A stretch of DNA of 12,679 bases from a virus (taxonomy: Duplodnaviria; Heunggongvirae; Uroviricota; Caudoviricetes): the IMG/VR virus record IMGVR_UViG_2693429557_000008, positions 1-12,679 of that record; one strand, written 5' to 3'. The position numbers were made by a program, and so were the translations under genes. Within the stretch, counting starts at the first letter, position 1. Each line of letters starts with the position of its first letter. A model generated the notes under the pieces. The model was not told where the DNA came from. It saw only the letters and a list, made by a program, of their open reading frames with translations, and did no database searches. Positions 1 through 12,679 of this stretch are shown here, piece after piece.

Positions 1-26
1 TTATCGAATACCTCGGTTTACAGGAA
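1..26 (+). other. Invertase crossover site 1 (gix/cix/hix-like 26-bp site, ttatcgaatacc-tc-ggtttacaggaa) lying inside the tail-fibre reading frame
   Basis: Two imperfect 12-bp half-sites flanking a central TC, resembling hix/gix half-sites (TTATCnAAnACC) as I recall them. An exact inverted copy lies at 2953-2978 and a 2-mismatch inverted copy at 4944-4969. The site is read through in frame as I-E-Y-L-G-L-Q-E-T. Confidence 0.8.
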
Positions 27-971
27 ACGGTAAATCAGGCTTCTGGCGCATTACAGAAAAACCAGAACGGCGCAGATATTCCGGGGAAAGATACCTTCAC
101 CAAAAATATTGGTGCCTGCCGCGCATATAGCTCATGGCTGAATATTGGTGGCGATAGTCAGGTCTGGACAACCGCGCAATTTATTTCGTGGCTGGAGAGT
201 CAGGGAGCATTTAACCATCCTTACTGGATGTGCAAAGGCTCATGGGCTTATGCAAATAATAAGGTCATTACAGATACAGGTTGCGGAAATATTTGTCTTG
301 CAGGTGCTGTGGTGGAAGTTATTGGCACTCGCGGCGCAATGACCATACGCGTTACCACGCCGAGCACGTCCAGCGGTGGCGGAATTACTAACGCTCAATT
401 CACTTATATTAATCATGGTGATGCTTACGCTCCTGGCTGGCGACGAGACTACAACACGAAAAATCAACAACCTGCATTTGCTTTAGGGCAAACAGGAAGC
501 ACTGTCGGAAATGATAAAGCTGTTGGCTGGAACTGGAATAGCGGGGTCTATAACGCAAACATTGGTGGCGCATCGACATTAATCCTCCACTTCAATATGA
601 ATACGGGGAGCTGCCCTGCTGTACAGTTCCGCGTGAATTACAGGAACGGCGGTATTTTTTATCGTTCAGCGCGTGATGGTTATGGCTTTGAAGCTGACTG
701 GTCAGAGTTTTACACCACAACCCGCAAACCCTCTGCGGGAGATGTTGGTGCATATACGCAGGCAGAATGTAACTCAAGGTTTATTACAGGTATTCGCCTT
801 GGTGGTCTGTTATCTGTTCAGACATGGAATGGTCCCGGATGGTCTGACAGGTCAGGTTATGTTGTTACCGGTTCCGTTAACTCAAACAGAGATGAACTAA
901 TTGATACAACTCAGGCAAGGCCAATTCAGTATTGCATTAATGGGACGTGGTATAACGCGGGGAGTATTTAA
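1..971 (+). CDS. Tail fibre protein, variable C-terminal segment A (5' end outside window; constant N-terminal part presumably upstream)
   Basis: Open frame from position 3 to TAA at 969-971. It begins inside the crossover site ([12 protein letters not shown]...) and ends with ...RPIQYCINGTWYNAGSI, a C-terminal motif shared with cassettes B and C. A tfa gene follows 2 nt downstream. Confidence 0.85.
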   Translation, partial: IEYLGLQETVNQASGALQKNQNGADIPGKDTFTKNIGACRAYSSWLNIGGDSQVWTTAQFISWLESQGAFNHPYWMCKGSWAYANNKVITDTGCGNICLAGAVVEVIGTRGAMTIRVTTPSTSSGGGITNAQFTYINHGDAYAPGWRRDYNTKNQQPAFALGQTGSTVGNDKAVGWNWNSGVYNANIGGASTLILHFNMNTGSCPAVQFRVNYRNGGIFYRSARDGYGFEADWSEFYTTTRKPSAGDVGAYTQAECNSRFITGIRLGGLLSVQTWNGPGWSDRSGYVVTGSVNSNRDELIDTTQARPIQYCINGTWYNAGSI

Positions 972-973
972 CG

Positions 974-1507
974 ATGATGCACTTAAAAAACATTTCTGCT
1001 GGTAATCCTGAAACAAAAGAGCAATACCAGCTAACGAAACAATTTAACATCAAATGGCTTTATACAGAGGATGGGAAAAACTGGTATGAGGAACAAAAGA
1101 ACTTTCAGCCTGATACGTTGAAAATGGTCTATGACCACAACGGCGTTATTATTTGTATTGAAAAGGATGTTTCAGCAATTAATCCGGAAGGCGCAAGCGT
1201 CGTTGAGGTTCCTGATATTACAGCAAATCGCCGGGCTGATATTTCAGGTAAATGGATGTTCAAAGATGGCGTAGTGATAAAGCGAACTTATACCGGGGAA
1301 GAGCAGAGGCAACAAGCGGAAAATGAAAAGCAAAGCCTGCTACAGCTCGTCAGGGATAAAACCCAGCTATGGGACTCACAGCTACGGCTGGGCATTATTT
1401 CCGACGAGAATAAACAAAAATTAACCGAGTGGATGCTCTATGCGCAGAAGGTCGAATCCACAGACACCTCCAGCCTGCCAGTAACGTTTCCCGAACAACC
1501 AGAATGA
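974..1507 (+). CDS. Tail fibre assembly chaperone (Tfa) for cassette A
   Basis: ATG ATG at 974, 2 nt after the fibre stop, with GGGGAG upstream. The N-terminus MMHLKNISAGNP...DGKNWYEE...FQPDT is the conserved Tfa N-domain, paralogous to the two - strand tfa genes. Ends TGA at 1505-1507. Confidence 0.9.
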   Translation: MMHLKNISAGNPETKEQYQLTKQFNIKWLYTEDGKNWYEEQKNFQPDTLKMVYDHNGVIICIEKDVSAINPEGASVVEVPDITANRRADISGKWMFKDGVVIKRTYTGEEQRQQAENEKQSLLQLVRDKTQLWDSQLRLGIISDENKQKLTEWMLYAQKVESTDTSSLPVTFPEQPE

Positions 1508-1731
1508 GAGAAGGCCCGCTATCGGGCCTTAATTTTTATTCAGGCTTTTGTGGCCATTCAGGATTTGCCGTATCCACACGGCTGACCAGAACACTGTAGC
1601 GTTCCCATGCTTCCAGTCGTGTGCGTTCCTCGTCCGTCGCCATATTCAGCCTGACAGCGCGTTCCAGCGGCTGGATGACTGATTCAGCTTCGGAAAGCAA
1701 TGCGGCCTTTTGTGATTCGGCCTGTTGTTGC
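1273..1731. repeat. Direct repeat copy 1 (~459 bp, ~98-99% identical to 3141-3599): tfa 3' end, terminator and 3' end of the convergent tfa
   Basis: Aligned by eye at a constant offset of 1868 bp. The only differences seen are about 6 substitutions clustered around the terminator. Confidence 0.85.
1511..1538. terminator. Bidirectional rho-independent terminator between convergent tfa genes
   Basis: aaggcccg-ctat-cgggcctt: 8-bp GC-rich stem with 4-nt loop, followed by a T-run on the + strand and preceded by an A-run, so it is U-rich on both transcripts. Confidence 0.65.
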
Positions 1732-2063
1732 AGTTCCTGTTCTGTATATTCCCTCTTTACTACTTTACCATCCAGAAACATCCATTTTCCGTTATTGTCT
1801 GCGTGACGATTTGCCGTAATATCAGGAACTTCAACTATGCTTAGCCCTTCAGGATTAATAGTTGAAACGTCTTTACTGACAGCAACGATGATGTTGTTCT
1901 CATCGTAAGCAATTTTTATGGTGTCTGGCTGAAAATTCTTTTGTTCCTCATACCAGTTTTTGCCATCTTCGCAAAAGAGCCATACCACGCCCGCTTTTTT
2001 AGTTAGCTGGTATTGTTCCGGTGTTTTCGGATTCCCGGCCTTAATATTTTTCAGGTGCATCAT
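1536..2063 (-). CDS. Tail fibre assembly chaperone (Tfa) for cassette B
   Basis: The track ORF 1536..2099 starts at TTG; the conserved [12 protein letters not shown] start is the ATG at 2063, one nt after the cassette B stop. Its C-terminal ~65 aa are identical to the tfa at 3404..3931. Confidence 0.9.
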
Positions 2064-2064
2064 C

Positions 2065-2978
2065 TTAAACACTCCCCACGTTGTACCATATTCCCCCAAT
2101 CAATTTCTGAATTGGCCTTCTGGCAACAGTGTCGACAATATCATCCGCATTGCTGTTAATTGCGGCTGTTAAAACATAACCTGACGCATCGCCAAAGCCG
2201 TAGTCGCGCCATACGTTTTTATATTCAATGCTGCCAAGACGAATATCCCGAACGACATGATTATGCAGCCATGTGCTTAACCAGTTGTTTTCCCACACTG
2301 AACCATAAATATCGCCACTAGACGCAACTTGCGCACCACTTCCCAGCGCAAATCCCCCATCTGTTTTAAAAATGAAATCACCACCACCATCTGAACCGTT
2401 ATTAATATGAACACCATCACCACCGTTATCTTTCCACAAAAACATACGAATTCTTCCGTCTTCGTTGGCGAATGTAATGTGGTGGCGGTAATTACTTTTT
2501 AATCTAAAATTGCTGCCATTAGATTCAATATCTTTATAAAGATGTAATCCTAACTCATCAATATGTCCGATGCGCGAACCATTTGAATAGAAGCTAATAA
2601 TACCATCTCCATCTTGCCTAAATCCGGTGTCGTTATCTCCCAGAACAATGGAGTTTTCACCCAGTGCGTTATCAGTAGCTCCAATAGCTAGACCTCCTTT
2701 AATTTTGGCCCCGTGGCTGACAGATATAGCACCTGTTCTCAGATTTATAGCGAATGGCCTTAATGGGCCGATATTACCGTTTTCGCCTTGTCCTTCAGCC
2801 GTCGGAATGAAATGAAGAAAATCTTCTGAACGACGGAAAATTAGACCGAAGGTATCATTGAAAATTCGCAGCGCATTCACCGTGCCAATTTTCAGTTCTC
2901 CGGTCATTTTATCGCCGGAACGCTGAACGGCGTTACCAGCCTTGTTTACCGTTTCCTGTAAACCGAGGTATTCGATAA
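2065..2978 (-). CDS. Tail fibre alternative C-terminal cassette B (silent in this orientation; no start codon or full constant region of its own)
   Basis: The frame runs from crossover site 2 ([17 protein letters not shown]...) to TAA at 2065-2067 and ends ...[18 protein letters not shown]. The track ORF 2065..3201 extends upstream only by reading through the constant-region fragment and the antisense of a tfa fragment. Confidence 0.8.
2953..2978 (-). other. Invertase crossover site 2 (inverted orientation, 26/26 identical to site 1)
   Basis: The reverse complement of 2949-2978 equals window positions 1-30 exactly. Confidence 0.85.
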
Positions 2979-3131
2979 CGGCAGCAACGGTCGATTTCGC
3001 AAGAATATCCCGCCCGACTTTTGTCAGGGTTGCCAGGCTGGCGACATCATTCCCCGTAAAATACGGAAACTTGCCTGCCGCAGTAGTAAGTCCGGCCAGC
3101 GCCGTCAGGGTGGCATCTTTCGGTTGCTTAC
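2979..3131 (-). pseudogene. Fragment of the tail-fibre constant region (3' ~150 bp) abutting site 2 in inverted orientation
   Basis: In frame with cassette B on the - strand: ...[48 protein letters not shown] followed by IEYLGLQ at the site. It has no start codon and ends abruptly at the boundary of the 459-bp repeat. Confidence 0.7.
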
Positions 3132-3140
3132 CCGCAAGCG

Positions 3141-3375
3141 AGTGATAAAGCGAACTTATACCGGGGAAGAGCAGAGGCAACAAGCGGAAAATGAAAAGCA
3201 AAGCCTGCTACAGCTCGTCAGGGATAAAACCCAGCTATGGGACTCACAGCTACGGCTGGGCATTATTTCCGACGAGAATAAACAAAAATTAACCGAGTGG
3301 ATGCTCTATGCGCAGAAGGTCGAATCCACAGACACCTCCAGCCTGCCAGTAACGTTTCCCGAACAACCAGAATGA
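3141..3375 (+). pseudogene. Truncated tfa gene (3' 235 bp, identical to the 3' end of the tfa at 974..1507)
   Basis: 3141-3375 appears base-for-base identical to 1273-1507 by eye. It encodes only the C-terminal ~77 aa (…KRTYTGEEQRQQAENEKQ…PVTFPEQPE). The track ORF 3124..3375 has no Tfa N-domain. Confidence 0.8.
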
Positions 3376-3378
3376 AAC

Positions 3379-3405
3379 AAGGCCCGATATCGGGCCTTAA
3401 TTTTT
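3379..3405. terminator. Bidirectional rho-independent terminator (second copy)
   Basis: aaggcccg-atat-cgggcctt followed by TTTTT. It is part of the 459-bp direct repeat; the stem is conserved and the loop differs by one base. Confidence 0.65.
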
Positions 3406-3931
3406 ACTCAGGCTTTTGTGGCCATTCTGGCTTTGCCGTATCCACACGGCTGACCAGAACACTGTAGCGTTCCCATGCTTCCAGTCGTGTGCGTTCCTCG
3501 TCCGTCGCCATATTCAGCCTGACAGCGCGTTCCAGCGGCTGGATGACTGATTCAGCTTCGGAAAGCAATGCGGCCTTTTGTGATTCGGCCTGTTGTTGCT
3601 GTTCGTCAGCCGTATAAATCCGTTTAACCACAGCTCCGTCCTTAAACATCCACTTACCGGAATCATCAGCACGACGATTAGCTGTAATATCAGGAACCTC
3701 AACGACGCTATAACCTTCAGGGTTAAGCGTGGAGGCATCTTTGGTGATGGCGACAATAATATTATTTGCATCGTAAACAATCTTTATTGTGTCTGGCTGA
3801 AAGTTCTTCACTTCCTCATACCAGTTTTTTCCGTCCTCAGAGTAAAGCCAGATGACTCCGTGCTTCTTTGTTAACTCATACTGCTCCACTGTTTTAGCAT
3901 TACCTGCTTTTATGTTCTTTAAGTGCATCAT
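3404..3931 (-). CDS. Tail fibre assembly chaperone (Tfa) for cassette C
   Basis: ATG ATG at 3931/3928 ([14 protein letters not shown]...), one nt after the cassette C stop. The track ORF start at 3964 is likely an upstream extension. It resembles e14 TfaE-type chaperones as I recall them. Confidence 0.9.
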
Positions 3932-3932
3932 A

Positions 3933-4961
3933 TTAAATACTCGCCACATTATACCAAGTGCCATTTATATACTTTTGCACTGGCCTGTAATGAACGCCTG
4001 CAATATTATCGGCAGAGTTTTTTCCGGTATCCTGTACGTTAATCCCCGTCAGTACATAGCCTGACGGGCACTGAAAATTCCATGTTTGCCAGTTGTTCAC
4101 TCCATAATATTGCTGTGAACCAAGTCGAACATCTTTCACATATCTGGAATCAAAATTGCCATAGTTGCCGGGAATAACTTGCGAGCCGCAAAGCCAGTTC
4201 CCGTTATTATCCATGTACGCCTGACCATCGGTGCCATTGGCTGTCCTTGAGTTATTAATCATGTAGATGCCAAATTGCTTATTTCCCAGACCGCCAATCA
4301 TAAATTTGCGGTCGGCATGGTCCTGACGGAGCAAAGCCTGAGCACCATCAGTGGATACCGCATTACGTCCCAAAATAACATTCTGGTCACGCATATGAAT
4401 CCACATGCCGGTACTACTGTTAATTGCAAAACGGTTTGCAAATATATCCCCTGTAACATCAAGACCATGCCCCATGCTTATCCGGCCAGTTCTGAGATTA
4501 AGCGTAAAGGGGCGTAGTGGCCCTATATTACCATTTTCCCCTTCATTCTCTCGTGTAGGGATGATATGCAGGCATTCTTCAGAACGACGAAAAATGGCAC
4601 CAAAAGATGAATTAAATATCCTCAGTGCATTGACTGTCGATATTTTCACTTCACTGCTGAAAAGGGCTTCAACAAGAACAGACAAAGCATTCCATTTAAG
4701 ATTCATCAGGTCTTTAGGCCGGGTGCCAATGATGCGGTGTCTCCATTTGAAATATTCATTGCCGTTGTTGCCTGTTTCAAACCACATGTAGGAATCGGTG
4801 TCTGCATCCGAATTATTTTTAAACCCAATCTTTGCCCAGTCAGTATTTCGAATCCAGGCAAGGATTGAGTCGTTTTCAAAAGTAAGTCCACCGGACAACG
4901 TATCGCCATTTTTTTGCACGGCGTTACCAGCCTTGTTTACCGTTTCCTGTAAACCGAGGTT
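3933..4961 (-). CDS. Tail fibre alternative C-terminal cassette C (silent in this orientation)
   Basis: The frame is open from just inside crossover site 3 to TAA at 3933-3935. The track M at 4919 is actually an in-frame GTG (Val) within ...[17 protein letters not shown].... Ends ...[20 protein letters not shown]. The upstream in-frame stop TAA (4962-4964) sits in the outer arm of site 3. Confidence 0.8.
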
Positions 4962-4969
4962 TTAGATAA
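4944..4969 (-). other. Invertase crossover site 3 (inverted orientation; variant outer arm ttatctaaaacc, same central TC)
   Basis: The reverse complement of 4940-4969 is ttatctaaaacctcggtttacaggaaacgg, matching site 1 at 28 of 30 positions. The inner flank (4921-4939) is identical to the flank of site 2. Confidence 0.8.
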
Positions 4970-5023
4970 TGGCCGTTTCCGGCCTGCATGGCATGATTTG
5001 CGCTTTTGGACGGGAGATTCAGC

Positions 5024-5611
5024 GTGCTGATTGGCTATGTAAGGGTATCAACAAATGACCAGAATACAGACCTGCAACGAAACGCTCTTGTTTGTGCAGG
5101 ATGTGAACAAATATTTGAAGATAAATTAAGCGGGACAAAGACAGACCGACCGGGATTAAAACGCGCTTTAAAGCGCCTTCAAAAAGGTGACACGCTGGTT
5201 GTCTGGAAACTGGATCGCCTCGGGCGAAGCATGAAACATCTGATTTCTCTCGTCGGGGAACTACGGGAGCGAGGAATTAATTTTCGCAGTCTGACCGACA
5301 GCATAGATACATCTTCTCCAATGGGGCGTTTTTTCTTCCACGTGATGGGTGCCCTGGCTGAAATGGAACGTGAATTAATTGTTGAACGTACACTGGCCGG
5401 ACTGGCGGCAGCACGCGCACGGGGGCGCACAGGCGGACGTCGACCGAAGCTGACAAAAGAACAGCATGAGCAAATAGCAAGGCTGATCAAAAACGGGCAC
5501 GACAGAAAACAACTGGCAATAATTTACGGCATTGGTATATCGACGATTTATCGTTACCACCCCGCAGGAGAATCAATCGGAACAATAGAGAAGAGTCAGG
5601 AAACAAAATAA
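5024..5611 (+). CDS. Serine-recombinase DNA invertase (Pin/Gin/Cin/Hin family)
   Basis: MLIGYVRVSTNDQNTDLQRNAL... with the catalytic Ser in the YVRVST motif and a C-terminal HTH region. A GTG start at 5024 has GGGAGA 6 nt upstream; the track ORF begins at an upstream TTG at 5006. Ends TAA at 5609-5611. Confidence 0.93.
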   Translation: MLIGYVRVSTNDQNTDLQRNALVCAGCEQIFEDKLSGTKTDRPGLKRALKRLQKGDTLVVWKLDRLGRSMKHLISLVGELRERGINFRSLTDSIDTSSPMGRFFFHVMGALAEMERELIVERTLAGLAAARARGRTGGRRPKLTKEQHEQIARLIKNGHDRKQLAIIYGIGISTIYRYHPAGESIGTIEKSQETK

Positions 5612-5640
5612 CCGCTAATCTGACCATTAGCGGTTTTTGT
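5611..5640. terminator. Bidirectional rho-independent terminator between invertase (+) and U (-)
   Basis: accgctaat-ctgacc-attagcggt: 9-bp stem with 6-nt loop, followed by TTTTTGT on the + strand and by a U-rich run on the - strand transcript. Confidence 0.7.
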
Positions 5641-5646
5641 GTTAAA

Positions 5647-6141
5647 TCAGAACAACCCTTTAACTGAACTGGCCGCGCTGTTAAGGGATGATGTTACCTT
5701 ATCTTTGAAGCCGGACAGCATATCGCTGAACGATGAGGATTGCAGGCGCTCCCGCAAATCCTCATCACAGCGTTCAAGAGTCAGTGAAAATTCTATCTTT
5801 TTCGCCTTACCGTAGCGATCAAACTCGGAGCGGGTCGTATTCGTTTCGGTCAGGACATACATGCCGTAAATCTGCCCGACGCCATCAATCAGAGGCCAGG
5901 GTCGTCCTGTATACGCCTGCGTGGTCAGCAGCGACAGCGACACTTCGCCACCTGTAATTTCAGGATAAAGCACACCAGAAAGAACGATGCGCTCATCACC
6001 TGCACCGATATACTGCCAGCTTGCCGAACGGTTAACGCGTTCATTTTTCACATGCCGCCAGCTTTTGTTTTGCTGTAACTGCTGATGCGGCAATGTACGC
6101 AGCTCAAAAACAAACATGCCGTAGATCATCATCATGGCCAT
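5647..6141 (-). CDS. U: Tail protein U homologue (P2 gpU-like)
   Basis: About 160 aa, immediately downstream of the tape measure gene, with a …SWRH…LSGVL.PE.TGG… pattern I recall from gpU. The start is ambiguous among ATGs at 6141, 6135 and 6132; GAGGAG at 6144-6149 favours 6135 or 6132. Confidence 0.8.
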   Translation of the reverse strand: MAMMMIYGMFVFELRTLPHQQLQQNKSWRHVKNERVNRSASWQYIGAGDERIVLSGVLYPEITGGEVSLSLLTTQAYTGRPWPLIDGVGQIYGMYVLTETNTTRSEFDRYGKAKKIEFSLTLERCDEDLRERLQSSSFSDMLSGFKDKVTSSLNSAASSVKGLF

Positions 6142-6147
6142 GACTCC

Positions 6148-8955
6148 TCAATCTTTATCGTAAAAACTGCCACGCCCGGCACGGGCGCGCCGTTCCATTT
6201 CTGCCCTGACCATTTCACCGACCAGTTTCGCCAGTTCGCGGGGATTCTGCGTAACAACGTTATGCAGATGAACATGAATTTCACCACCAAATCCGGAGGC
6301 AACAGGCTCCCGGTTACGGGAAGTTACAGGAACTGATGCCACTGGAGAGCGTATGGCCTCCGCCACCGGGCGGGAGCTGGCCGCAACAACAGGGACCAGC
6401 GCCGGAGGCAGCGGAGCCGGGACCACGGGTGTGATATTAATTGCGGGGGCAGGCTTACTGACCTGCGCAATCTTCCGCTCCTGCCACTCCCCACGAACAG
6501 CAAGTGCGCGGGGCAGGTTCTTAAAGACAATATCGCCGGGGCCAATGCGTTTTTTCGTCTCATCAACCAGCTTACCTGTGTTATCAGCAATTTTGCTGAG
6601 TCTGCGTAGCGTCCCGGTATTGCTGTCTGTGAGCGGTTTGTTGTCTTTGGGTTTATCACCTCCGGTGCCATTGCCATTTTCCACAGGCTTCGGCGGATTG
6701 ATTTTCGCCAGGTCCCCCTGAAGCAAGGCAACCTTGTCCTGAAGAATGGCCGCACGCTGTGCGTCTTCGATTTTCTTGCGCGCCCTTTCCGCTTCATCCG
6801 GAAGGACGCCAAGTTTTTCAAGTATCCACGCCAGCGTATCCAGTAGCATTTTTGCAGGTGTCAGAACAAGTTGTAACGCACCGCCAAGAACGTTACCGAA
6901 TATCTCGCCAGCACTGGCACATTTATCCAGCGTTTCCTTGCTGGACTCCATCGGTGACAGCAGCGATTTAAACCAGTTAAAGACCTGAATAATCCCATCG
7001 CGCACGACATCAAAAACAGGGCCAAACCGTTCAAAGGTTTCGCGCAACGGGGTCAGCCTTTCCATAATCCCGCTGAACACCCCGGCAAAAAATGCCCTGA
7101 TGGGATCCCAGTATTTCCAGATAAGAACGGCAGCTCCGGCAAGCGCAGCCACGATAAGACTAACCGGACTGAACAGCGCCCCGATAGCGCCACCAAGTAA
7201 AGAAACGGAACCCGTCACCATTCCCCATAATGCAGGCAGAACCCTGACAACATTCATTGATTCGGTCAGGAGAGAAAAACCGAGACGCAACGTAGCCAGC
7301 TTCCCGTGAAGCACCCCAATAACCAGAGACAACGAACCAACCGTTGCTGTTGTCGCCAGCAGTGCGCCTCCCGCTATCAGTAACTGGCGCGTCAGTGCCG
7401 GGTGGGCCTGCGCCAGCGCCGTCACCTTTGAGACAACCCGCGTGAGCCACTGCGTGACAGAACGCAGCGGACCGTCAACCAGATCACTGATGCGAATACG
7501 CAGACCTTCCCATGCACTGCCGAGTGATTTCAGGTTGCCATCAAGGTTATTGGCCATAACCTTTGCCGTGCGTTCTGCCTCACCGCGCGCGCCTTCAAGT
7601 TCTTTTCTCAGTTTGGCTAAGAAGCCGTCACCTGCCGCATCAACGAGGCCCATAAATGATGTGAAAGCCTCTTCTCCGGCAATGTCCTTAAAGAACGATA
7701 CCCGGTCAACCTCCCCGTATTTGCGGGTGGCTTTATAGAGATCGGCCAGCACATTCTCCATCGGGCGCATTTTGCCTTTGGCGTCAGCAACTGACACCCC
7801 CAGCTCTTTCAGTGCTTCTGCCGCTGCCTTTGGCGGTGATGACAGATTGGCCAGGCTTTTACGCAACGCTGTACCTGCATCACTCCCCCTGATACCCATC
7901 TTCGCCAGCACGCCCGCCATCGCTGCGGCCTGCTCCAGCGATATTCCCAGCTTACCCGCCACCGGACCTGCATATTTCATGGTTTCGCCCAGTGCGCGAA
8001 GGTCAGTGTTGGTACGGGTAAACGCTGCGGTAAGTGTGTCACCGACCCGGTCCATCTGGTCAGCAGAGAGGCCGAACTGCGTCAGGATATTGGAACCAAT
8101 ATCCGCCGTCTCGCCGAGGTCCATACCGCCAGCCGTTGCCATGCTCAGCACGCCGGGAAGCGCAGCCTGAATGGCCTGCGGTGTGAAACCAGCCATTGCA
8201 AGAAATGCCTGTCCACTGGCGGCATCGCCTGCGGTGAACTGCGTTTCAGAGCCAAGTTTTAACGCCTGCTCACGCAGCGCCTTAAACTGCGGGCTGTTTT
8301 TATCGATTCGCGTCAGTGCCTGAACACGGGACATCTCTTTCCCGAACCCGATAGCGGGCTGCAAAAAACGCCCGGCAGCATAGCCGCCCGCTGCCGCCGC
8401 ACCTGTTGCCAGCGCACCACCTGTTTTCAGTTTTCCCGCTGTTTCCTGCGCGCGTGAATACCGCTCACGCGCCTGCGTTACACGCGCAAGCGCCCGCCGT
8501 TCGCGTTCAAGCTGGTTGTTGTATTGTCCGGTGCGTCTGATGGCCTGCTGGATGGTGTTATCGCTGCCTGTCAGGGAAATGCCGTGGCGTTTCAGCTCTC
8601 CGCCAAGTTCCCGCATTTTCTGAATTTCCCGTGTGCGCGATTCATTCAGGCGTTCAAGCCGGGTGCTTAACTGCTGCATCAGCTTTTGTTGTTTTTCGCT
8701 GAGCACTGTACCCGTGCGTTGTAACTGATTAAGGGCGTTAAGCTGGCGTCGTGCTTTCACGATGCCCGCATCCGCTTTACTGACAGCGTCACGGGCGCGC
8801 TCAAATGAACGCGCCTGACGCTCGAGATTTTTGATCGCCCCCTGCGTTCGCTGGATGGAGTCACCAAACTGCCCCATCAGGCGGCGGGCGTTTTCGGCAG
8901 GCCGGGTCAGCCTGTCAACGGCGCTGAAAGCGACCCGGATATCAAGAGTCTTCAT
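6148..8955 (-). CDS. T: Tail tape measure protein (P2 gpT-like)
   Basis: A ~935-aa ORF, alanine/glycine-rich, with predicted hydrophobic segments and a proline-rich C-terminal stretch. It sits between E+E' and U, and its start overlaps the E' end. The track start at 8991 is GTG; ATGs at 8964 and 8955 are alternatives, 8955 having GGGAA 8 nt upstream. Confidence 0.88.
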   Translation of the reverse strand: MKTLDIRVAFSAVDRLTRPAENARRLMGQFGDSIQRTQGAIKNLERQARSFERARDAVSKADAGIVKARRQLNALNQLQRTGTVLSEKQQKLMQQLSTRLERLNESRTREIQKMRELGGELKRHGISLTGSDNTIQQAIRRTGQYNNQLERERRALARVTQARERYSRAQETAGKLKTGGALATGAAAAGGYAAGRFLQPAIGFGKEMSRVQALTRIDKNSPQFKALREQALKLGSETQFTAGDAASGQAFLAMAGFTPQAIQAALPGVLSMATAGGMDLGETADIGSNILTQFGLSADQMDRVGDTLTAAFTRTNTDLRALGETMKYAGPVAGKLGISLEQAAAMAGVLAKMGIRGSDAGTALRKSLANLSSPPKAAAEALKELGVSVADAKGKMRPMENVLADLYKATRKYGEVDRVSFFKDIAGEEAFTSFMGLVDAAGDGFLAKLRKELEGARGEAERTAKVMANNLDGNLKSLGSAWEGLRIRISDLVDGPLRSVTQWLTRVVSKVTALAQAHPALTRQLLIAGGALLATTATVGSLSLVIGVLHGKLATLRLGFSLLTESMNVVRVLPALWGMVTGSVSLLGGAIGALFSPVSLIVAALAGAAVLIWKYWDPIRAFFAGVFSGIMERLTPLRETFERFGPVFDVVRDGIIQVFNWFKSLLSPMESSKETLDKCASAGEIFGNVLGGALQLVLTPAKMLLDTLAWILEKLGVLPDEAERARKKIEDAQRAAILQDKVALLQGDLAKINPPKPVENGNGTGGDKPKDNKPLTDSNTGTLRRLSKIADNTGKLVDETKKRIGPGDIVFKNLPRALAVRGEWQERKIAQVSKPAPAINITPVVPAPLPPALVPVVAASSRPVAEAIRSPVASVPVTSRNREPVASGFGGEIHVHLHNVVTQNPRELAKLVGEMVRAEMERRARAGRGSFYDKD

Positions 8956-9471
8956 TGTCTGCATTCCCGCTGCGAAGTGCCGCCCGCTCACGCCAGCTAA
9001 CCACTTCGCCGGGCGTCATCATGAAGATTTCGGCGGGCGACCAGTTAAAAATGGCGGCAATATCCGCCACAAAGTCTTCTATGTGCTCAAAGCACACAAC
9101 CGTGATCAGGCTTCCGTCGCCTGTTCGTTCTTCTCGCCAGAGTCCGCACCGCTCAAAAAATTTACGGCAACCACACATAACTGAATAAAGTCACGGGATG
9201 CCATTTTTTTGATCGTCACTTCATCCAGTCGCGGTGATGTCACGCGTGACAGCAGCGTAAACATGGATTCCGCTTTCAAATTCAGCACATCAGACAGCGA
9301 CAAATCTCGCAGAGATCCAGCCTGCTCAATAGCCCCGGTGATCTCCACATACGTGATTTTTTCGCCGCCTCGCTCAATTGGTTGGGTAAGTTTTACGCCA
9401 CGCTCACTGGTTTCTTTCACAGTGTCAGCAACGACCGTGTTTTCGGTATCGATGTTTTTCGTCTCTTTCAT
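8942..9471 (-). CDS. E+E' fusion produced by programmed -1 ribosomal frameshift (slip at 9154-9160)
   Basis: The -1 frame is blocked by a stop at 9191-9193 and then open from 9190 to TGA at 8942-8944. The E-frame heptamer T-TTT-TTG lies inside this overlap. The predicted fusion is about 176 aa. Confidence 0.7.
9106..9471 (-). CDS. E: Tail assembly chaperone E (P2 gpE / lambda G analogue)
   Basis: ATG at 9471 with AAGGAG 7 nt upstream. The 121-aa zero-frame product ends at TGA 9108-9106. It lies between the tube gene and the tape measure gene and contains a TTTTTTG slippery heptamer. Confidence 0.8.
   Translation of the reverse strand: MKETKNIDTENTVVADTVKETSERGVKLTQPIERGGEKITYVEITGAIEQAGSLRDLSLSDVLNLKAESMFTLLSRVTSPRLDEVTIKKMASRDFIQLCVVAVNFLSGADSGEKNEQATEA
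9154..9160 (-). promoter_or_regulatory. Slippery heptamer T TTT TTG for the E/E' -1 frameshift
   Basis: The - strand reads aaT TTT TTG agc in the E frame (…V N F L S…). This is the heptamer I recall being reported for the P2 E/E+E' frameshift. Confidence 0.65.
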
Positions 9472-9525
9472 CAGGAAACTCCTTTCAGTCAGAGGCGACG
9501 CACTGCGCCGCCTGCATATTACTTA

Positions 9526-10038
9526 TCAGCCAAGCCCGAGCGCGGAACGGATGCGATCGGGCACAATGTCCCTGCCGTCCTTCCGGTAAATGAAGTTCAG
9601 CAGGTCAATCTCCCACAACGGGCGATCGTTAACACTCAGCTTGTAGTAGGTGTTTTTAATGGCGTAAGTGTGTGATGTGGCTTCGCCCTGTTTGGCTTCC
9701 CCCATATCAATTTCCGTCACACGTCCGCGCATTTCGACTTCATACAGGTCGCTTTCAGCGTCGGTGTAGTATTCACCCGCAAAACGCAGCAGCGTACCGT
9801 CAATCGTGCCGCCATACTTAAGGAACAGCTCACGAACTGCGCCCCCCATGACAAAGCTCGCATCAAGCGCGGAGTCATCCAGGCCGAGATCAATACTTAC
9901 CGCTCCCATCATGCCACCACCCCGGTAGCTGTCGGTTTTGCGCGTCAGCTTAGGCAGAGTGACGGACGTCACCTTACCCACTTCGTTTTCACCATCCACA
10001 AACAGCGTAAAAAAGCGAAGATGTTTTGGTACAGCCAT
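9526..10038 (-). CDS. FII: Tail tube protein (P2 FII-like)
   Basis: A 170-aa ORF whose ATG at 10038 overlaps the sheath TGA stop (shared A at 10038, translational coupling). Size and position match the P2 F_I-F_II pair. Confidence 0.88.
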   Translation of the reverse strand: MAVPKHLRFFTLFVDGENEVGKVTSVTLPKLTRKTDSYRGGGMMGAVSIDLGLDDSALDASFVMGGAVRELFLKYGGTIDGTLLRFAGEYYTDAESDLYEVEMRGRVTEIDMGEAKQGEATSHTYAIKNTYYKLSVNDRPLWEIDLLNFIYRKDGRDIVPDRIRSALGLG

Positions 10039-11222
10039 CAGGCACCTCCCAGCACCGCAAATGCGGGACCAAAGAATTCATCAGTAAACGACTGGTAAAG
10101 CTCCATGTCTTCCAGCGGGGGAACAGGCGTATATTTGTAGCGAATACGCACGCGCCCCTGACGTAAATTCGTGGTGCCGTTATCCACCACGTCATACCAG
10201 CACGACGCCCCAATCAGTTTCCCGGCAGTAACCAGTGAATCCAGTTTTGCCCTGATGGCACCGATAACATCCTTCACGTTCGCAGGCGTCAGTGGACTGT
10301 CGATGGTTTCAAACTGCGCTTCCGCAATTGAATCAGCCAGCACCTGTGCGGTTCGGGTATACACCTCAAAGATGTAGGCGTTCGTTTCCGGTGTGCGGTT
10401 GCCCCAGAAGCGGAACCCGTTGCGACGAATAATGGTCGTGATTTCTTTGTTGTTGAGGCTGTTGGCATCACTGTCTTCGGCCTGCAACGACCAGAACACA
10501 TGCCTGGACATCCCCAGCACATTTTTAACCGGAACGTTGGACAGCGATTTGTGCCAGCCCTGCTCATGGTCAATGTACGCACGAAGGCCGCACGCATAGG
10601 CAGGCGCGGGGAACGTTTCGTTTTTGCCACTTTTCGGGTTGTAGGCGATGAAGTCCGGCCATAAGAGCATCACCTCACGTTCGTTGAATTTCTGGCGGTA
10701 GGTAATTGCCTCAGCCATCGTGTTACAGTCATGACATGAGGCATACACAAACGCGCGCAGTTTACCCGCAATCACGCACAGGGATTTTGTCACCGCCTCC
10801 GTGTCCAGCTCCGGCGCGGCCAGAATACGCGGACGGTATCCGATGCTTTCATCCTGCTCTGCAACAAGCAGCGCATACATCCCCGTATAGCTGCCGTCAG
10901 ATTCAGAACCACCGATAACCAGTTGATCCTGCGTTTTTCCGTCTTCTTCTTTGTGTTCAGCCACGCGAACGACGATCACCTTTGTGCTCACCTGGTCTGC
11001 GATGGCCTTAAGCGCACGATAAAGCGTCCCCGTTGTTCCGCATTTTCCCAGCACGTCATTGACGCGGGGCAGCAGTGTGGGCTTGTTCAGCGGGAACAGC
11101 TCCGCGTCCGCATCATCCGCCGTTGCCACGATACCGATAACGCTGGAATCAACATCGTTAATCGCTGTTACCAGGTCGGTATTTTCCGTAACACGGGCAC
11201 CATGAAAACGAGTTTCACTCAT
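10038..11222 (-). CDS. FI: Contractile tail sheath protein (P2 FI-like)
   Basis: A 394-aa ORF with motifs I recall from P2-family sheaths (FPLNKP…, EQGWHK.LSNV, RRNGFRFWGNRT, YTRTAQV, YKYTPVPPLE). ATG at 11222 with AAGGGG 8 nt upstream. Confidence 0.93.
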   Translation of the reverse strand: MSETRFHGARVTENTDLVTAINDVDSSVIGIVATADDADAELFPLNKPTLLPRVNDVLGKCGTTGTLYRALKAIADQVSTKVIVVRVAEHKEEDGKTQDQLVIGGSESDGSYTGMYALLVAEQDESIGYRPRILAAPELDTEAVTKSLCVIAGKLRAFVYASCHDCNTMAEAITYRQKFNEREVMLLWPDFIAYNPKSGKNETFPAPAYACGLRAYIDHEQGWHKSLSNVPVKNVLGMSRHVFWSLQAEDSDANSLNNKEITTIIRRNGFRFWGNRTPETNAYIFEVYTRTAQVLADSIAEAQFETIDSPLTPANVKDVIGAIRAKLDSLVTAGKLIGASCWYDVVDNGTTNLRQGRVRIRYKYTPVPPLEDMELYQSFTDEFFGPAFAVLGGA

Positions 11223-11379
11223 AGCTTCAACCCCTTGTATCCGTTAAATGATTCGGCAACAATCATCACCCACCACGCGCGTAATCTCACCCCTGCGCCA
11301 TTCTCCCGCCACGGCGACAACAAAAAGCAGTAACCCCCTCCGCACGCACATGCGACCATGCCACACAGGGAGGGAGCAG

Positions 11380-12489
11380 ATGACCGACACCACCATGCAA
11401 TTGCTCAGTCAGGGCACAGACCCCGTGAAAATGCCGGATTTTGATATTCTCGCGGAGGGTAAAACGCTGTCAGGCGTGGCAGAGCGCCTGATGAGCCTGT
11501 CACTGACCGACAACCGGGGATTTGAGGCGGACCAGCTCACCATCACGCTGGATGATGCGGATGGTCAGTTGCAGCTACCGCCACGGGGCGCGCGCCTGAC
11601 GGTTCTCATTGGCTGGAAGGGAGAACCGCTGACAGAAAAAGGCACTTACATTGTTGATGAAATCGCTCACGAAGGACCGCCGGACAGGCTGACTGTTTCA
11701 GCCAGAAGCGCAGATTTTCGGGCTGAATTTAACGTTAAACGTGAGGTGTCCTGGCATGATGTGACCGTTGAGCGTGTGGTATCCGCCATCGCTCATCGGT
11801 ATGGTCTGAAACCGCAAATCAGCGAAATGCTGATGGATATCGAAATCGACCACGCCGACCAGACCGAAGAAAGCGACATGTCCTTCCTTACGCGCATGGC
11901 GGAAATGCTGGGCGCAATCACCACGGTAAAAAGCGGTAATCTGTTATTCATCATGCCCGGTGGTGGCGTGAACGCACAGGGCCAGCCGTTGCCCTCGTTC
12001 GCCATCACACGCAGCAGCGGCGATCGCCATCAGTTCCGCATTGCTGACCGCGAAGCGTATACGGGGGTACGCGCTTACTGGCTTGATCTTAATTACGGGA
12101 AAAAGAAAAAAGTCAGCGTGAAACGCCGCAAACCGTCAAAACCAAAAAAGGAGAAAAGCAGCAGCCGGGAAGGCGACTATATGGAAGGTGCGGAAGGCAA
12201 CGTGTTTGTGTTACGCAAAACTTATCAGAACGAGCAGGCAGCAAGACGTGCAGCGGCGGCAAAGTGGCAGCAGCTACAACGCGGAGCCGCATCATTCTCC
12301 ATCACACTGGCGCATGGACGTGCAGAACTCTACCCCGAAATGCATGGCACGGTAACAGGATTTAAAAGCGAGATTGATAATCAGGACTGGATTATTGCAA
12401 AAGCCGAGCACACCATTGATAACAGCGGCTTTACCACGCAGCTTGAGCTTGAGGCAAAAATCCCGGAATGGATAGCAGAAACAGAGTGA
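11380..12489 (+). CDS. D: Tail protein D homologue (P2 gpD-like late tail gene)
   Basis: The ORF track opens at 11248, but the ATG at 11380 has GGGAGGGAG upstream and gives MTDTTMQLLSQGTDPVKMPDFDIL…LTDNRGFEADQL…RSADFR…SWHD…, matching the gpD pattern as I remember it. It includes a lysine-rich low-complexity insert (KKKKVSVKRRKPSKPKKEK). Confidence 0.85.
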   Translation: MTDTTMQLLSQGTDPVKMPDFDILAEGKTLSGVAERLMSLSLTDNRGFEADQLTITLDDADGQLQLPPRGARLTVLIGWKGEPLTEKGTYIVDEIAHEGPPDRLTVSARSADFRAEFNVKREVSWHDVTVERVVSAIAHRYGLKPQISEMLMDIEIDHADQTEESDMSFLTRMAEMLGAITTVKSGNLLFIMPGGGVNAQGQPLPSFAITRSSGDRHQFRIADREAYTGVRAYWLDLNYGKKKKVSVKRRKPSKPKKEKSSSREGDYMEGAEGNVFVLRKTYQNEQAARRAAAAKWQQLQRGAASFSITLAHGRAELYPEMHGTVTGFKSEIDNQDWIIAKAEHTIDNSGFTTQLELEAKIPEWIAETE

Positions 12490-12638
12490 GCAACTTAAAT
12501 GTATTAACTCAGAACGGATCAACACACTCACAACATAGAGTCAATATAGCTGCTCGCTTTGTTCCAGCAAGGATGCCTATTTCTAAGGAAAAACAGAGCA
12601 GAAACATATGGTGTTTTCCTACCTGACATCAGGGGTGG

Positions 12639-12679
12639 TAGACTGGCCCCCTGAATCTCCAGACAACCAGTATCACTTA
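12639..12679 (+). mobile_element. Left terminal inverted repeat of an IS2-like insertion sequence (truncated by window end)
   Basis: tagactggccccctgaatctccagacaaccagtatcactta matches the IS2 left end as I remember it (TAGACTGGCCCCCTGAATCTCCAGACAACCAATATCACTTA…) with one difference. Only about 41 bp are visible, and this is from memory, not a search. Confidence 0.6.

Follow-up and report, generated by a model that had tools for sequence, protein, structure and literature searches.

Does the insertion sequence that begins about 150 bp downstream of gene D, at the very end of the DNA considered here, account for the apparent absence of the late activator gene ogr? The sequence analysed, referred to below as the window, is a stretch of 12,679 nucleotides that carries the tail genes of a P2-like prophage and stops shortly after D. 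From these letters alone, a sequence-only reading had recognised the left end of IS2, had noticed that no ogr-like ORF follows D, and had proposed either that an IS insertion disrupted the late-control region or that the position marks the decayed edge of a tailocin or defective prophage. The account that we consider probable is a different one, in which an ordinary and complete IS2 lies in a non-coding spacer and a cargo module displaces ogr. The features on which the argument is built are listed in Table 1.

Table 1. Features of the window and of the corresponding sister loci (window coordinates unless another sequence is named; empty cells where no value is given).
Feature	Position	Strand	Remarks
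Tail-fibre variable segments and assembly chaperones	1-4919		
Gin/Cin/Pin-type crossover sites (TTATCGAATACCTCGGTTTACAGGAAAC…)	1-56, 2923-2978, 4915-4973		one opposite in orientation to the other two
Direct repeat, 300 bp, 98%	1273-1572 / 3141-3440		flanks the mosaic segment
ORFs of the mosaic segment	1536-2099, 2065-3201	-	
Serine invertase (Resolvase + HTH_7)	about 5024-5611	+	
U	5647-6141	opposite to D	
Tape measure	6148-8991	opposite to D	
E	9106-9471	opposite to D	
FII	9526-10038	opposite to D	
FI	10038-11222	opposite to D	
Gene D, tail/baseplate hub protein	11380..12489	+	369 aa; Pfam PF05954 Phage_GPD, 62.9 bits
Cargo left border relative to P88	12490..12497	+	motif GCAACTTA, recurring at the right border (…GAACAACTTAGAAT…) just upstream of ogr
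Cargo leader, first 141 nt, non-coding	12498..12638	+	100% identity with the corresponding empty-site sequence in 59 E. coli genomes
GGTGG, IS2 target site, left copy of the target-site duplication	12634..12638	.	empty site …CAGGGGTGGTAAGAATC…; on both sides of IS2 in 53G
IS2 IRL, 41 of 42 bp	12639..12679	+	40/41 to K-12 IS2A; orfA/orfB read rightwards, away from D, towards the PIN gene
Loci bearing the window's junction			L008 = HE616528.1 (53G complete); L006 and L016 = 53G draft; L020 = CP179990.1; L022 = CP026802.1
IS2 in the 53G chromosome	HE616528.1, about 1,548,346-1,549,676		right end = L008 12590
PIN gene, 500 aa	L008 12672-14174		
ogr, 86 aa	L008 14418-14678		
hok/sok module and STnc540 match	L008 14723-15009 and 15218-15374		hok/sok closes the prophage

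The IS2 end and its complete counterparts

The terminal 41 nt of the window (TAGACTGGCCCCCTGAATCTCCAGACAACCAGTATCACTTA) are the left end of IS2, as the sequence-only reading had noticed. They align without gaps to IS2A of E. coli K-12 MG1655 (NC_000913.3 381260-382590), the sole mismatch being a G for A at 12670 (IS2 position 32, inside the IRL), and the right end of IS2A aligns far more poorly to the same nucleotides. The distance estimated earlier between D and the element is also borne out: 149 nt separate the D stop codon from IS2, the GGTGG target occupying nucleotides 145-149 past the stop, and the junction reads CATCAGGGGTGGTAGACTGGCC. The ends of IS2 are a 42-bp IRL and a 41-bp IRR (PMC3299598), so that the window stops one base before the IRL is complete, and the first 41 bp of the 42-bp terminal repeat starting TAGACTGG… are visible in it. 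A 48-nt query spanning the junction gave 18,447 matches (best E = 2e-14), spread over 4,499 of 5,426 complete E. coli genomes, which is normal for the end of a multicopy IS.

Sister loci with flanks of 10 kb were collected by an exact look-up of the D protein and extended by a second look-up. The exact junction of the window was found at five of these loci, representing four genomes, with both the complete and the draft sequence of Shigella sonnei 53G counted among the loci; the complete sequence, HE616528.1, belongs to a lineage II strain (PMC5447701). None of the complete E. coli genomes has this junction, an exact 31-nt scan for it in one genome per species gave no match, probably because Shigella does not count there as a species of its own, and an exact look-up of the 378-aa ORF of the window was likewise negative. 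Across the junction, 53G and the final 353 nt of the window agree at every position (353/353), window 4929-12679 is 99.97% identical to 53G over 7.7 kb, and the other four junction loci are identical to L008 over all stretches compared. Three loci (L006, L008 and L020) span the element together with its right flank: in L006 and L008 the sequence measures 1331 bp, which makes it a complete IS2, and shares 99.55% identity with IS2A, and L020 does not differ from L008 anywhere in the element. GGTGG is present on both flanks in S. sonnei 53G as a 5-bp target duplication, the right copy of which is seen in the sister loci only, and the empty site (…CAGGGGTGG/TAAGAATC…) contains a single GGTGG. The full-length element with a 5-bp duplication that the sequence-only reading had proposed to look for by extending the sequence is thus present in genomes with the identical junction.

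The IS2 of L008 encodes an OrfA of 121 aa (HTH_Tnp_1, 70 bits) and an OrfB of 301 aa (rve, rve_3 and HTH_21), lengths that are the same as in K-12 IS2A. Six SNPs separate the element of the sister loci from IS2A, the position-32 G of the window among them, and this set would fit the Shigella IS2 alleles that form a separate subgroup (PMC7373316). According to the same study, IS1, IS2, IS4, IS600 and IS911 have expanded in all Shigella species, to extents that vary between strains (PMC7373316). The insertion itself is polymorphic, being present in four of the sampled genomes and replaced by the empty site in at least nine other loci with an identical D protein. We regard it as routine, one more outcome of the IS expansion known in Shigella, and published S. 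sonnei sequences, that of 53G among them, already contain this exact insertion. The element itself is textbook material, and the present copy, complete and probably still functional as a member of the IS3 family, would have transposed by copy-out/paste-in into a P88-like S. sonnei prophage, its target GGTGG lying in a non-coding spacer with the PIN cargo gene downstream. The site could serve as a marker of S. sonnei lineages, as it is occupied in 53G (lineage II) and the insertion is absent from several other genomes. Beyond the 41 bp of IS2 in the window, we infer the whole arrangement from the genomes with the same junction, and the genome of the window itself would continue as in 53G.

Gene D, ogr and the cargo between them

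Gene D is the last conserved late structural gene ahead of a variable region; its ORF is intact and identical in S. sonnei 53G, its nucleotide sequence is about 97% identical to that of phage P88 and its product shares 50% identity with P2 gpD over 370 aa. Some genomes annotate or call D as a 266-aa "VgrG/Pvc8 family" protein (L001 14237-15090, from E. coli O111 strain 11128; gene calls of L018 and L020). A truncated D of this length was considered and rejected, as both L001 and L020 keep all 369 codons in an uninterrupted ORF, which points to an artefact of start-site annotation; L018 ends within D, and the length check rests on the two other loci.

No ORF of 60 aa or more lies wholly within the 12490-12638 interval that separates D from IS2, the only longer ORF touching it being an antisense one of 79 aa (12292-12531) that is situated mostly inside D. 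A tblastn search with the 86-aa Ogr proteins of a sister locus and of P88 detected no ogr-like sequence in the whole window (best E 3.1 over 7 residues), and no zinc-finger ORF of the Ogr/Delta type (CxxC…CxxC, PF04606) was found beside D inside the window. The ORF list and the search of the whole window therefore agree with the earlier observation that D is followed by no ogr-like ORF. The gene is nevertheless intact in the sister loci, where it begins 1,828 nt past the right end of IS2 and encodes a protein with an Ogr_Delta domain (PF04606, 52.3 bits for a cut-off of 26.3), 38% identity to P2 Ogr and the cysteine motifs in place. All 21 related loci that reach the region (including L001, L003-L012 and L013) have an intact ogr, IS2-bearing loci among them, and Ogr is 100% conserved at the protein level between IS2-bearing and empty loci. 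An intact adjacent ogr-like gene was what the sequence-only reading had itself named as the observation that would contradict it, and such a gene lies 1.8 kb past the IS2 right end.

What parts D from ogr is a cargo module. Homology to P88 ends 8 nt past the D stop and resumes 41 nt upstream of the ogr ATG (L008 14377), and the 1.92-kb insert between these points is bordered by the microhomology CAACTTA; homology to all 13 phage records compared is lost at window 12500-12515 or earlier. The gene order, shared by O111 strain 11128 and every S. sonnei-type locus, is D, a 225-nt spacer, the PIN gene, a 244-nt spacer, ogr, sok/hok and then ihfA-pheT-pheS. The cargo is found uninterrupted, with at least 99.8% identity, in 59 of the 5,426 complete E. 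coli genomes, mostly O111, and IS2 is inserted in it in 0 of these 59. Since the same cargo occurs in these genomes without IS2, IS2 is not the cause of the displacement: ogr is absent right after D because the cargo module intervenes, and its absence from the window is explained by this module together with the window boundary. The proposal that an IS insertion disrupted the late-control region is therefore not supported as an explanation of the missing ogr. In the mechanism that we favour, the 1.92-kb cargo would have been inserted between D and ogr at the CAACTTA microhomology in this prophage lineage, and IS2 would neither delete late control nor mark the prophage border. For annotation, a gene that is missing at the edge of a window or contig should not be taken for a lost gene, and the D-ogr junction of P88-like prophages can hold cargo. 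Invertases whose presence in the Z/fun hotspot goes together with an inversion of the neighbouring genes have been reported (bioRxiv 10.1101/2024.10.15.618418), and the cargo located just after D may correspond to this hotspot.

The protein encoded by the cargo has an N-terminal PIN_4 domain followed by a C-terminal beta-sandwich, and keeps the invariant acidic residues typical of PIN nucleases, D10, E45, D112 and D137 being conserved positions of the family alignment. It has no match in PADLOC, NCBIfam, PHROGs, PDB sequences or 50,697 phage records. Its homologues form 52 clusters of proteins of about 470-520 aa, in Enterobacterales and beyond, that are named only "PIN domain-containing" or "DNA-binding". 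Three homologue loci (L034, L035 and L036) were considered: in an Enterobacter P2-like prophage the homologue stands beside an AAA ATPase gene, between portal and replication genes, in a Rahnella P2-like prophage it lies between S and V, and in Pectobacterium it neighbours type IV secretion genes in a region resembling an integrative conjugative element (ICE), so that P2-like prophages harbour this cargo at three different positions and an ICE-like region carries it too. Such placement is what one expects of a mobile gene with an accessory or defence role, and the protein is a candidate for that putative function; no literature on PIN-domain defence genes in P2 hotspots was found. That the protein might be an uncharacterised single-gene anti-phage or addiction module, moving between P2-like hotspots and other mobile elements and altered in its expression by IS2 in one S. 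sonnei lineage, is a speculation to which we attach a low probability. The PIN-domain protein is the only element of this region that deserves experimental follow-up.

Promoters and read-through around the insertion

IS2 sits in the 225-nt spacer between D and the PIN gene and interrupts no coding sequence. The PIN ATG is found 81 nt past the right end of the element, corresponding to 76 nt past GGTGG in the empty site, and a candidate PIN promoter (TTGATA-16-TATTAT, L008 12609-12636) is intact and begins 18 nt past the IS2 right end; all promoter assignments given here are consensus matches, which are no commoner than in shuffled sequence. The main effects of the insertion would be to block read-through from the D transcript and to replace the DNA upstream of the -35 of this candidate promoter.

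A regulatory, possibly selected insertion, in which IS2 would change the expression of a toxic nuclease or defence gene by silencing an upstream control site or by adding read-through, would be in keeping with the position of the element just upstream of the PIN -35, with the orientation of its transposase genes towards the PIN gene, with the invariance of the acidic residues and with the occurrence of relatives in hotspots of P2-like prophages and in an ICE-like region. IS2 is moreover documented to alter neighbouring promoters, for example those of ampC and acrEF (PMC9330008). We nevertheless regard such a role as unlikely, given that no hybrid promoter is detected at the right end of IS2, that the core of the candidate PIN promoter is untouched and that the polymorphism of the insertion, present in four sampled genomes, is as expected for neutral IS drift. 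A hybrid promoter at the right end had been sought and was rejected, a scan of the L008 junction giving only the native TTGATA-16-TATTAT; the outward -35 of the IRR was also discarded as half of such a promoter, as it lies, by our own reading, about 22 nt from the nearest -10-like hexamer.

On the left side of the element, scanning detected neither a promoter-like nor a terminator-like site in 12498-12638 and no terminator after D, and no Rfam family was found in the 12498-12638 spacer; a long hairpin spans the D stop, with a fold z-score of only -1.69. A TGT-N11-ACA motif at 12612-12628 was examined as an Ogr-binding site and rejected: its spacing is not the N12 of P2, its place would be near -66, the window has 0.63 motifs of this kind per kb, and none is present in the late intergenic regions FI-D and P-O of this phage lineage. 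It was treated as a chance match. FI and D diverge from a 157-nt spacer (11223-11379). The P2 late-promoter dyad TGT-N12-ACA is absent from this FI-D spacer and from the P-O spacer of the O111 relative (L033 17855-18008). By eye, a CTTGTATC-like motif is common to both spacers, and it might be the activator half-site of this lineage.

The element could also act at a distance. Were ogr dependent on transcription from upstream, either from the late promoter of D or from a promoter in the 3' end of D, IS2 would stop this transcription and the late genes would stay off. P88 lends some support to such a dependence, as a scan of its 43-nt D-ogr gap gives no promoter-like site and the only match lies inside D (L013 11844-11873, corresponding to window 12352-12381); likewise, the P2 record describes the terminator after ogr as serving the "ogr transcript and F operon", so that late read-through of the F operon into ogr exists in P2, and the 244-nt PIN-ogr spacer contains no plus-strand promoter-like site at the scan threshold. 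Against this, the cargo alone already parts D from ogr by 1.9 kb in the 59 E. coli genomes, which indicates that read-through was probably dispensable before IS2 arrived, and a hairpin with a T-rich tail, read by eye and unreported by the terminator scan, is already present within the cargo between the PIN gene and ogr (L008 about 14284-14318). The coding sequence of ogr is, in addition, fully conserved whether or not IS2 is present. Finally, between the cargo border and ogr there is a -10-like TAGAAT, 31-36 nt ahead of the ATG, which is preceded by a weak -35 (TTGGAG) at a spacing of 17 nt. Its position is like that of the -10 of the ogr promoter annotated in the D-ogr gap of the P2 record (34-40 nt before the ATG), from which we infer that ogr would keep its own promoter. 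A polar effect of IS2 on late control thus appears quite improbable, and in the preferred reading, that of an IS2 lying in the cargo spacer, the insertion would at most abolish late read-through from D, already unlikely across a 1.9-kb cargo.

Extent of the prophage and comparison with related phages

In the sister loci, about 3.8 kb of prophage follow the left end of IS2; they include the PIN gene, ogr and hok/sok, and the host gene ihfA comes next. The sok match (48 bits) is below the Rfam gathering score of 59 and the Hok Pfam match scores 29 bits; past the end of the prophage, but ahead of ihfA, there is a match to the STnc540 sRNA that exceeds its threshold (43 bits). Upstream, the sister loci L014 and L022, the latter IS2-bearing, carry scaffold, major capsid, small terminase, head completion and lysis genes, and R, S, V, W, J, I and H genes are also found upstream in sister loci, while portal, large terminase and integrase genes are seen only in the O111 relative, with the integrase at the far end beside btuC and an IS1203 cutting the replication gene. 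The tail genes of the window from U to D are all intact. With capsid and small-terminase genes on one side and a right border past ogr and hok on the other, the sister loci do not correspond to an R-type tailocin or tail-only remnant, and they do not support the proposal that the IS2 end marks the decayed edge of a tailocin or defective prophage. In L022 (CP026802.1), the tail-completion genes R and S are called as one 364-aa fusion (4583-5677), suggesting a 1-nt indel, so that this prophage copy could be defective or the sequence could contain an error.

The other end of the window is occupied by an invertible tail-fibre region. Together, the three crossover sites and the serine invertase constitute a tail-fibre switch of the multiple-inversion type. 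A crossover site coincides exactly with the start of the window, whose frame 3 is open from 3 to 971, so that the variable C-terminus of the fibre gene H enters from the left. Both ends of the window thus fall at repeats, the crossover site at base 1 and IS2 at the end, which suggests a short-read contig; the window is probably such a contig broken at repeats, its edge being an assembly boundary. In 53G the insertion site, the orientation of IS2 and the flanks are all the same as in the window, whereas the invertible region (window 1 to about 4900) is arranged otherwise and the window carries an extra cassette of about 1.4 kb. In none of the sister loci does the P88-like prophage contain this segment (window about 1700-3137), which shares exact 25-mers with the invertible tail-fibre region of another, lambdoid prophage located beside the trp operon in S. 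sonnei-type genomes; its 378-aa ORF includes the end of a constant fibre part and a crossover site. Either two prophages have genuinely exchanged sequence here, or the mosaic is a chimera of the contig formed via shared assembly-chaperone sequence. As it is unseen in the sister loci, the source of the window is not simply 53G, or the contig is partly chimeric.

IS elements often cause deletions and inversions in Shigella, so that the source strain could differ downstream of the window. If IS2 were a rearrangement breakpoint in that genome, the PIN gene, ogr and the right end of the prophage would be missing there or lie elsewhere, owing to an IS2-mediated deletion or inversion. Only 41 bp of IS2 are visible in the window, the sister loci show IS-associated rearrangements in the tail-fibre region and two prophages contribute to the left part of the window, itself a mosaic, all of which would be compatible with this possibility; Shigella genomes, furthermore, hold hundreds of IS copies and are rearranged (PMC7373316). 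We consider it very unlikely all the same, in view of the identity of the five junction loci (four genomes) over the compared stretches, of the complete IS2 followed by the same right flank in L006, L008 and L020, and of the position-32 G variant that the window copy shares with the sister loci.

Over the 3 kb of FII-FI-D, the window is 96.5-98.0% identical to 12 of the 13 phage records (including P88 and P884B11, both of the genus Xuanwuvirus), the thirteenth, phage Chuche, being 93.6% identical. Both this identity and the gene order place the prophage with the P88-like phages (Xuanwuvirus). P88 (Xuanwuvirus P88, NC_026014) has the same order of H, fibre assembly genes, invertase, U-T-E-FII-FI on the opposite strand and D, and since the FI-U inversion is shared with P88-type phages, it is a feature of the lineage and not damage. 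P88 differs in having ogr 43 nt after D, with neither the PIN cargo nor IS2. The ogr of P88 is an 86-aa Ogr/Delta zinc-finger ORF (L013 12024-12284) that is unannotated in the RefSeq record.

A documented regulatory case, that of ampC (Jaurin and Normark 1983), involves an outward -35 in the IRR that pairs with a resident -10 at 17 nt (PMC9330008). In both situations IS2 lies directly upstream of a promoter region, with its right end facing the gene; unlike at ampC, there is no 17-nt pairing here and the native -35 is retained. In P2 (NC_001895), as here, D precedes a small zinc-finger late activator, which in P2 has a promoter of its own and a terminator in common with the late tail operon. 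The two systems differ in layout, FI-FII-E-T-U-D forming one co-directional operon in P2 with ogr 81 nt after D, whereas in the present prophage FI-U is inverted relative to D and ogr lies 1.9 kb from D, or 3.3 kb when IS2 is included.
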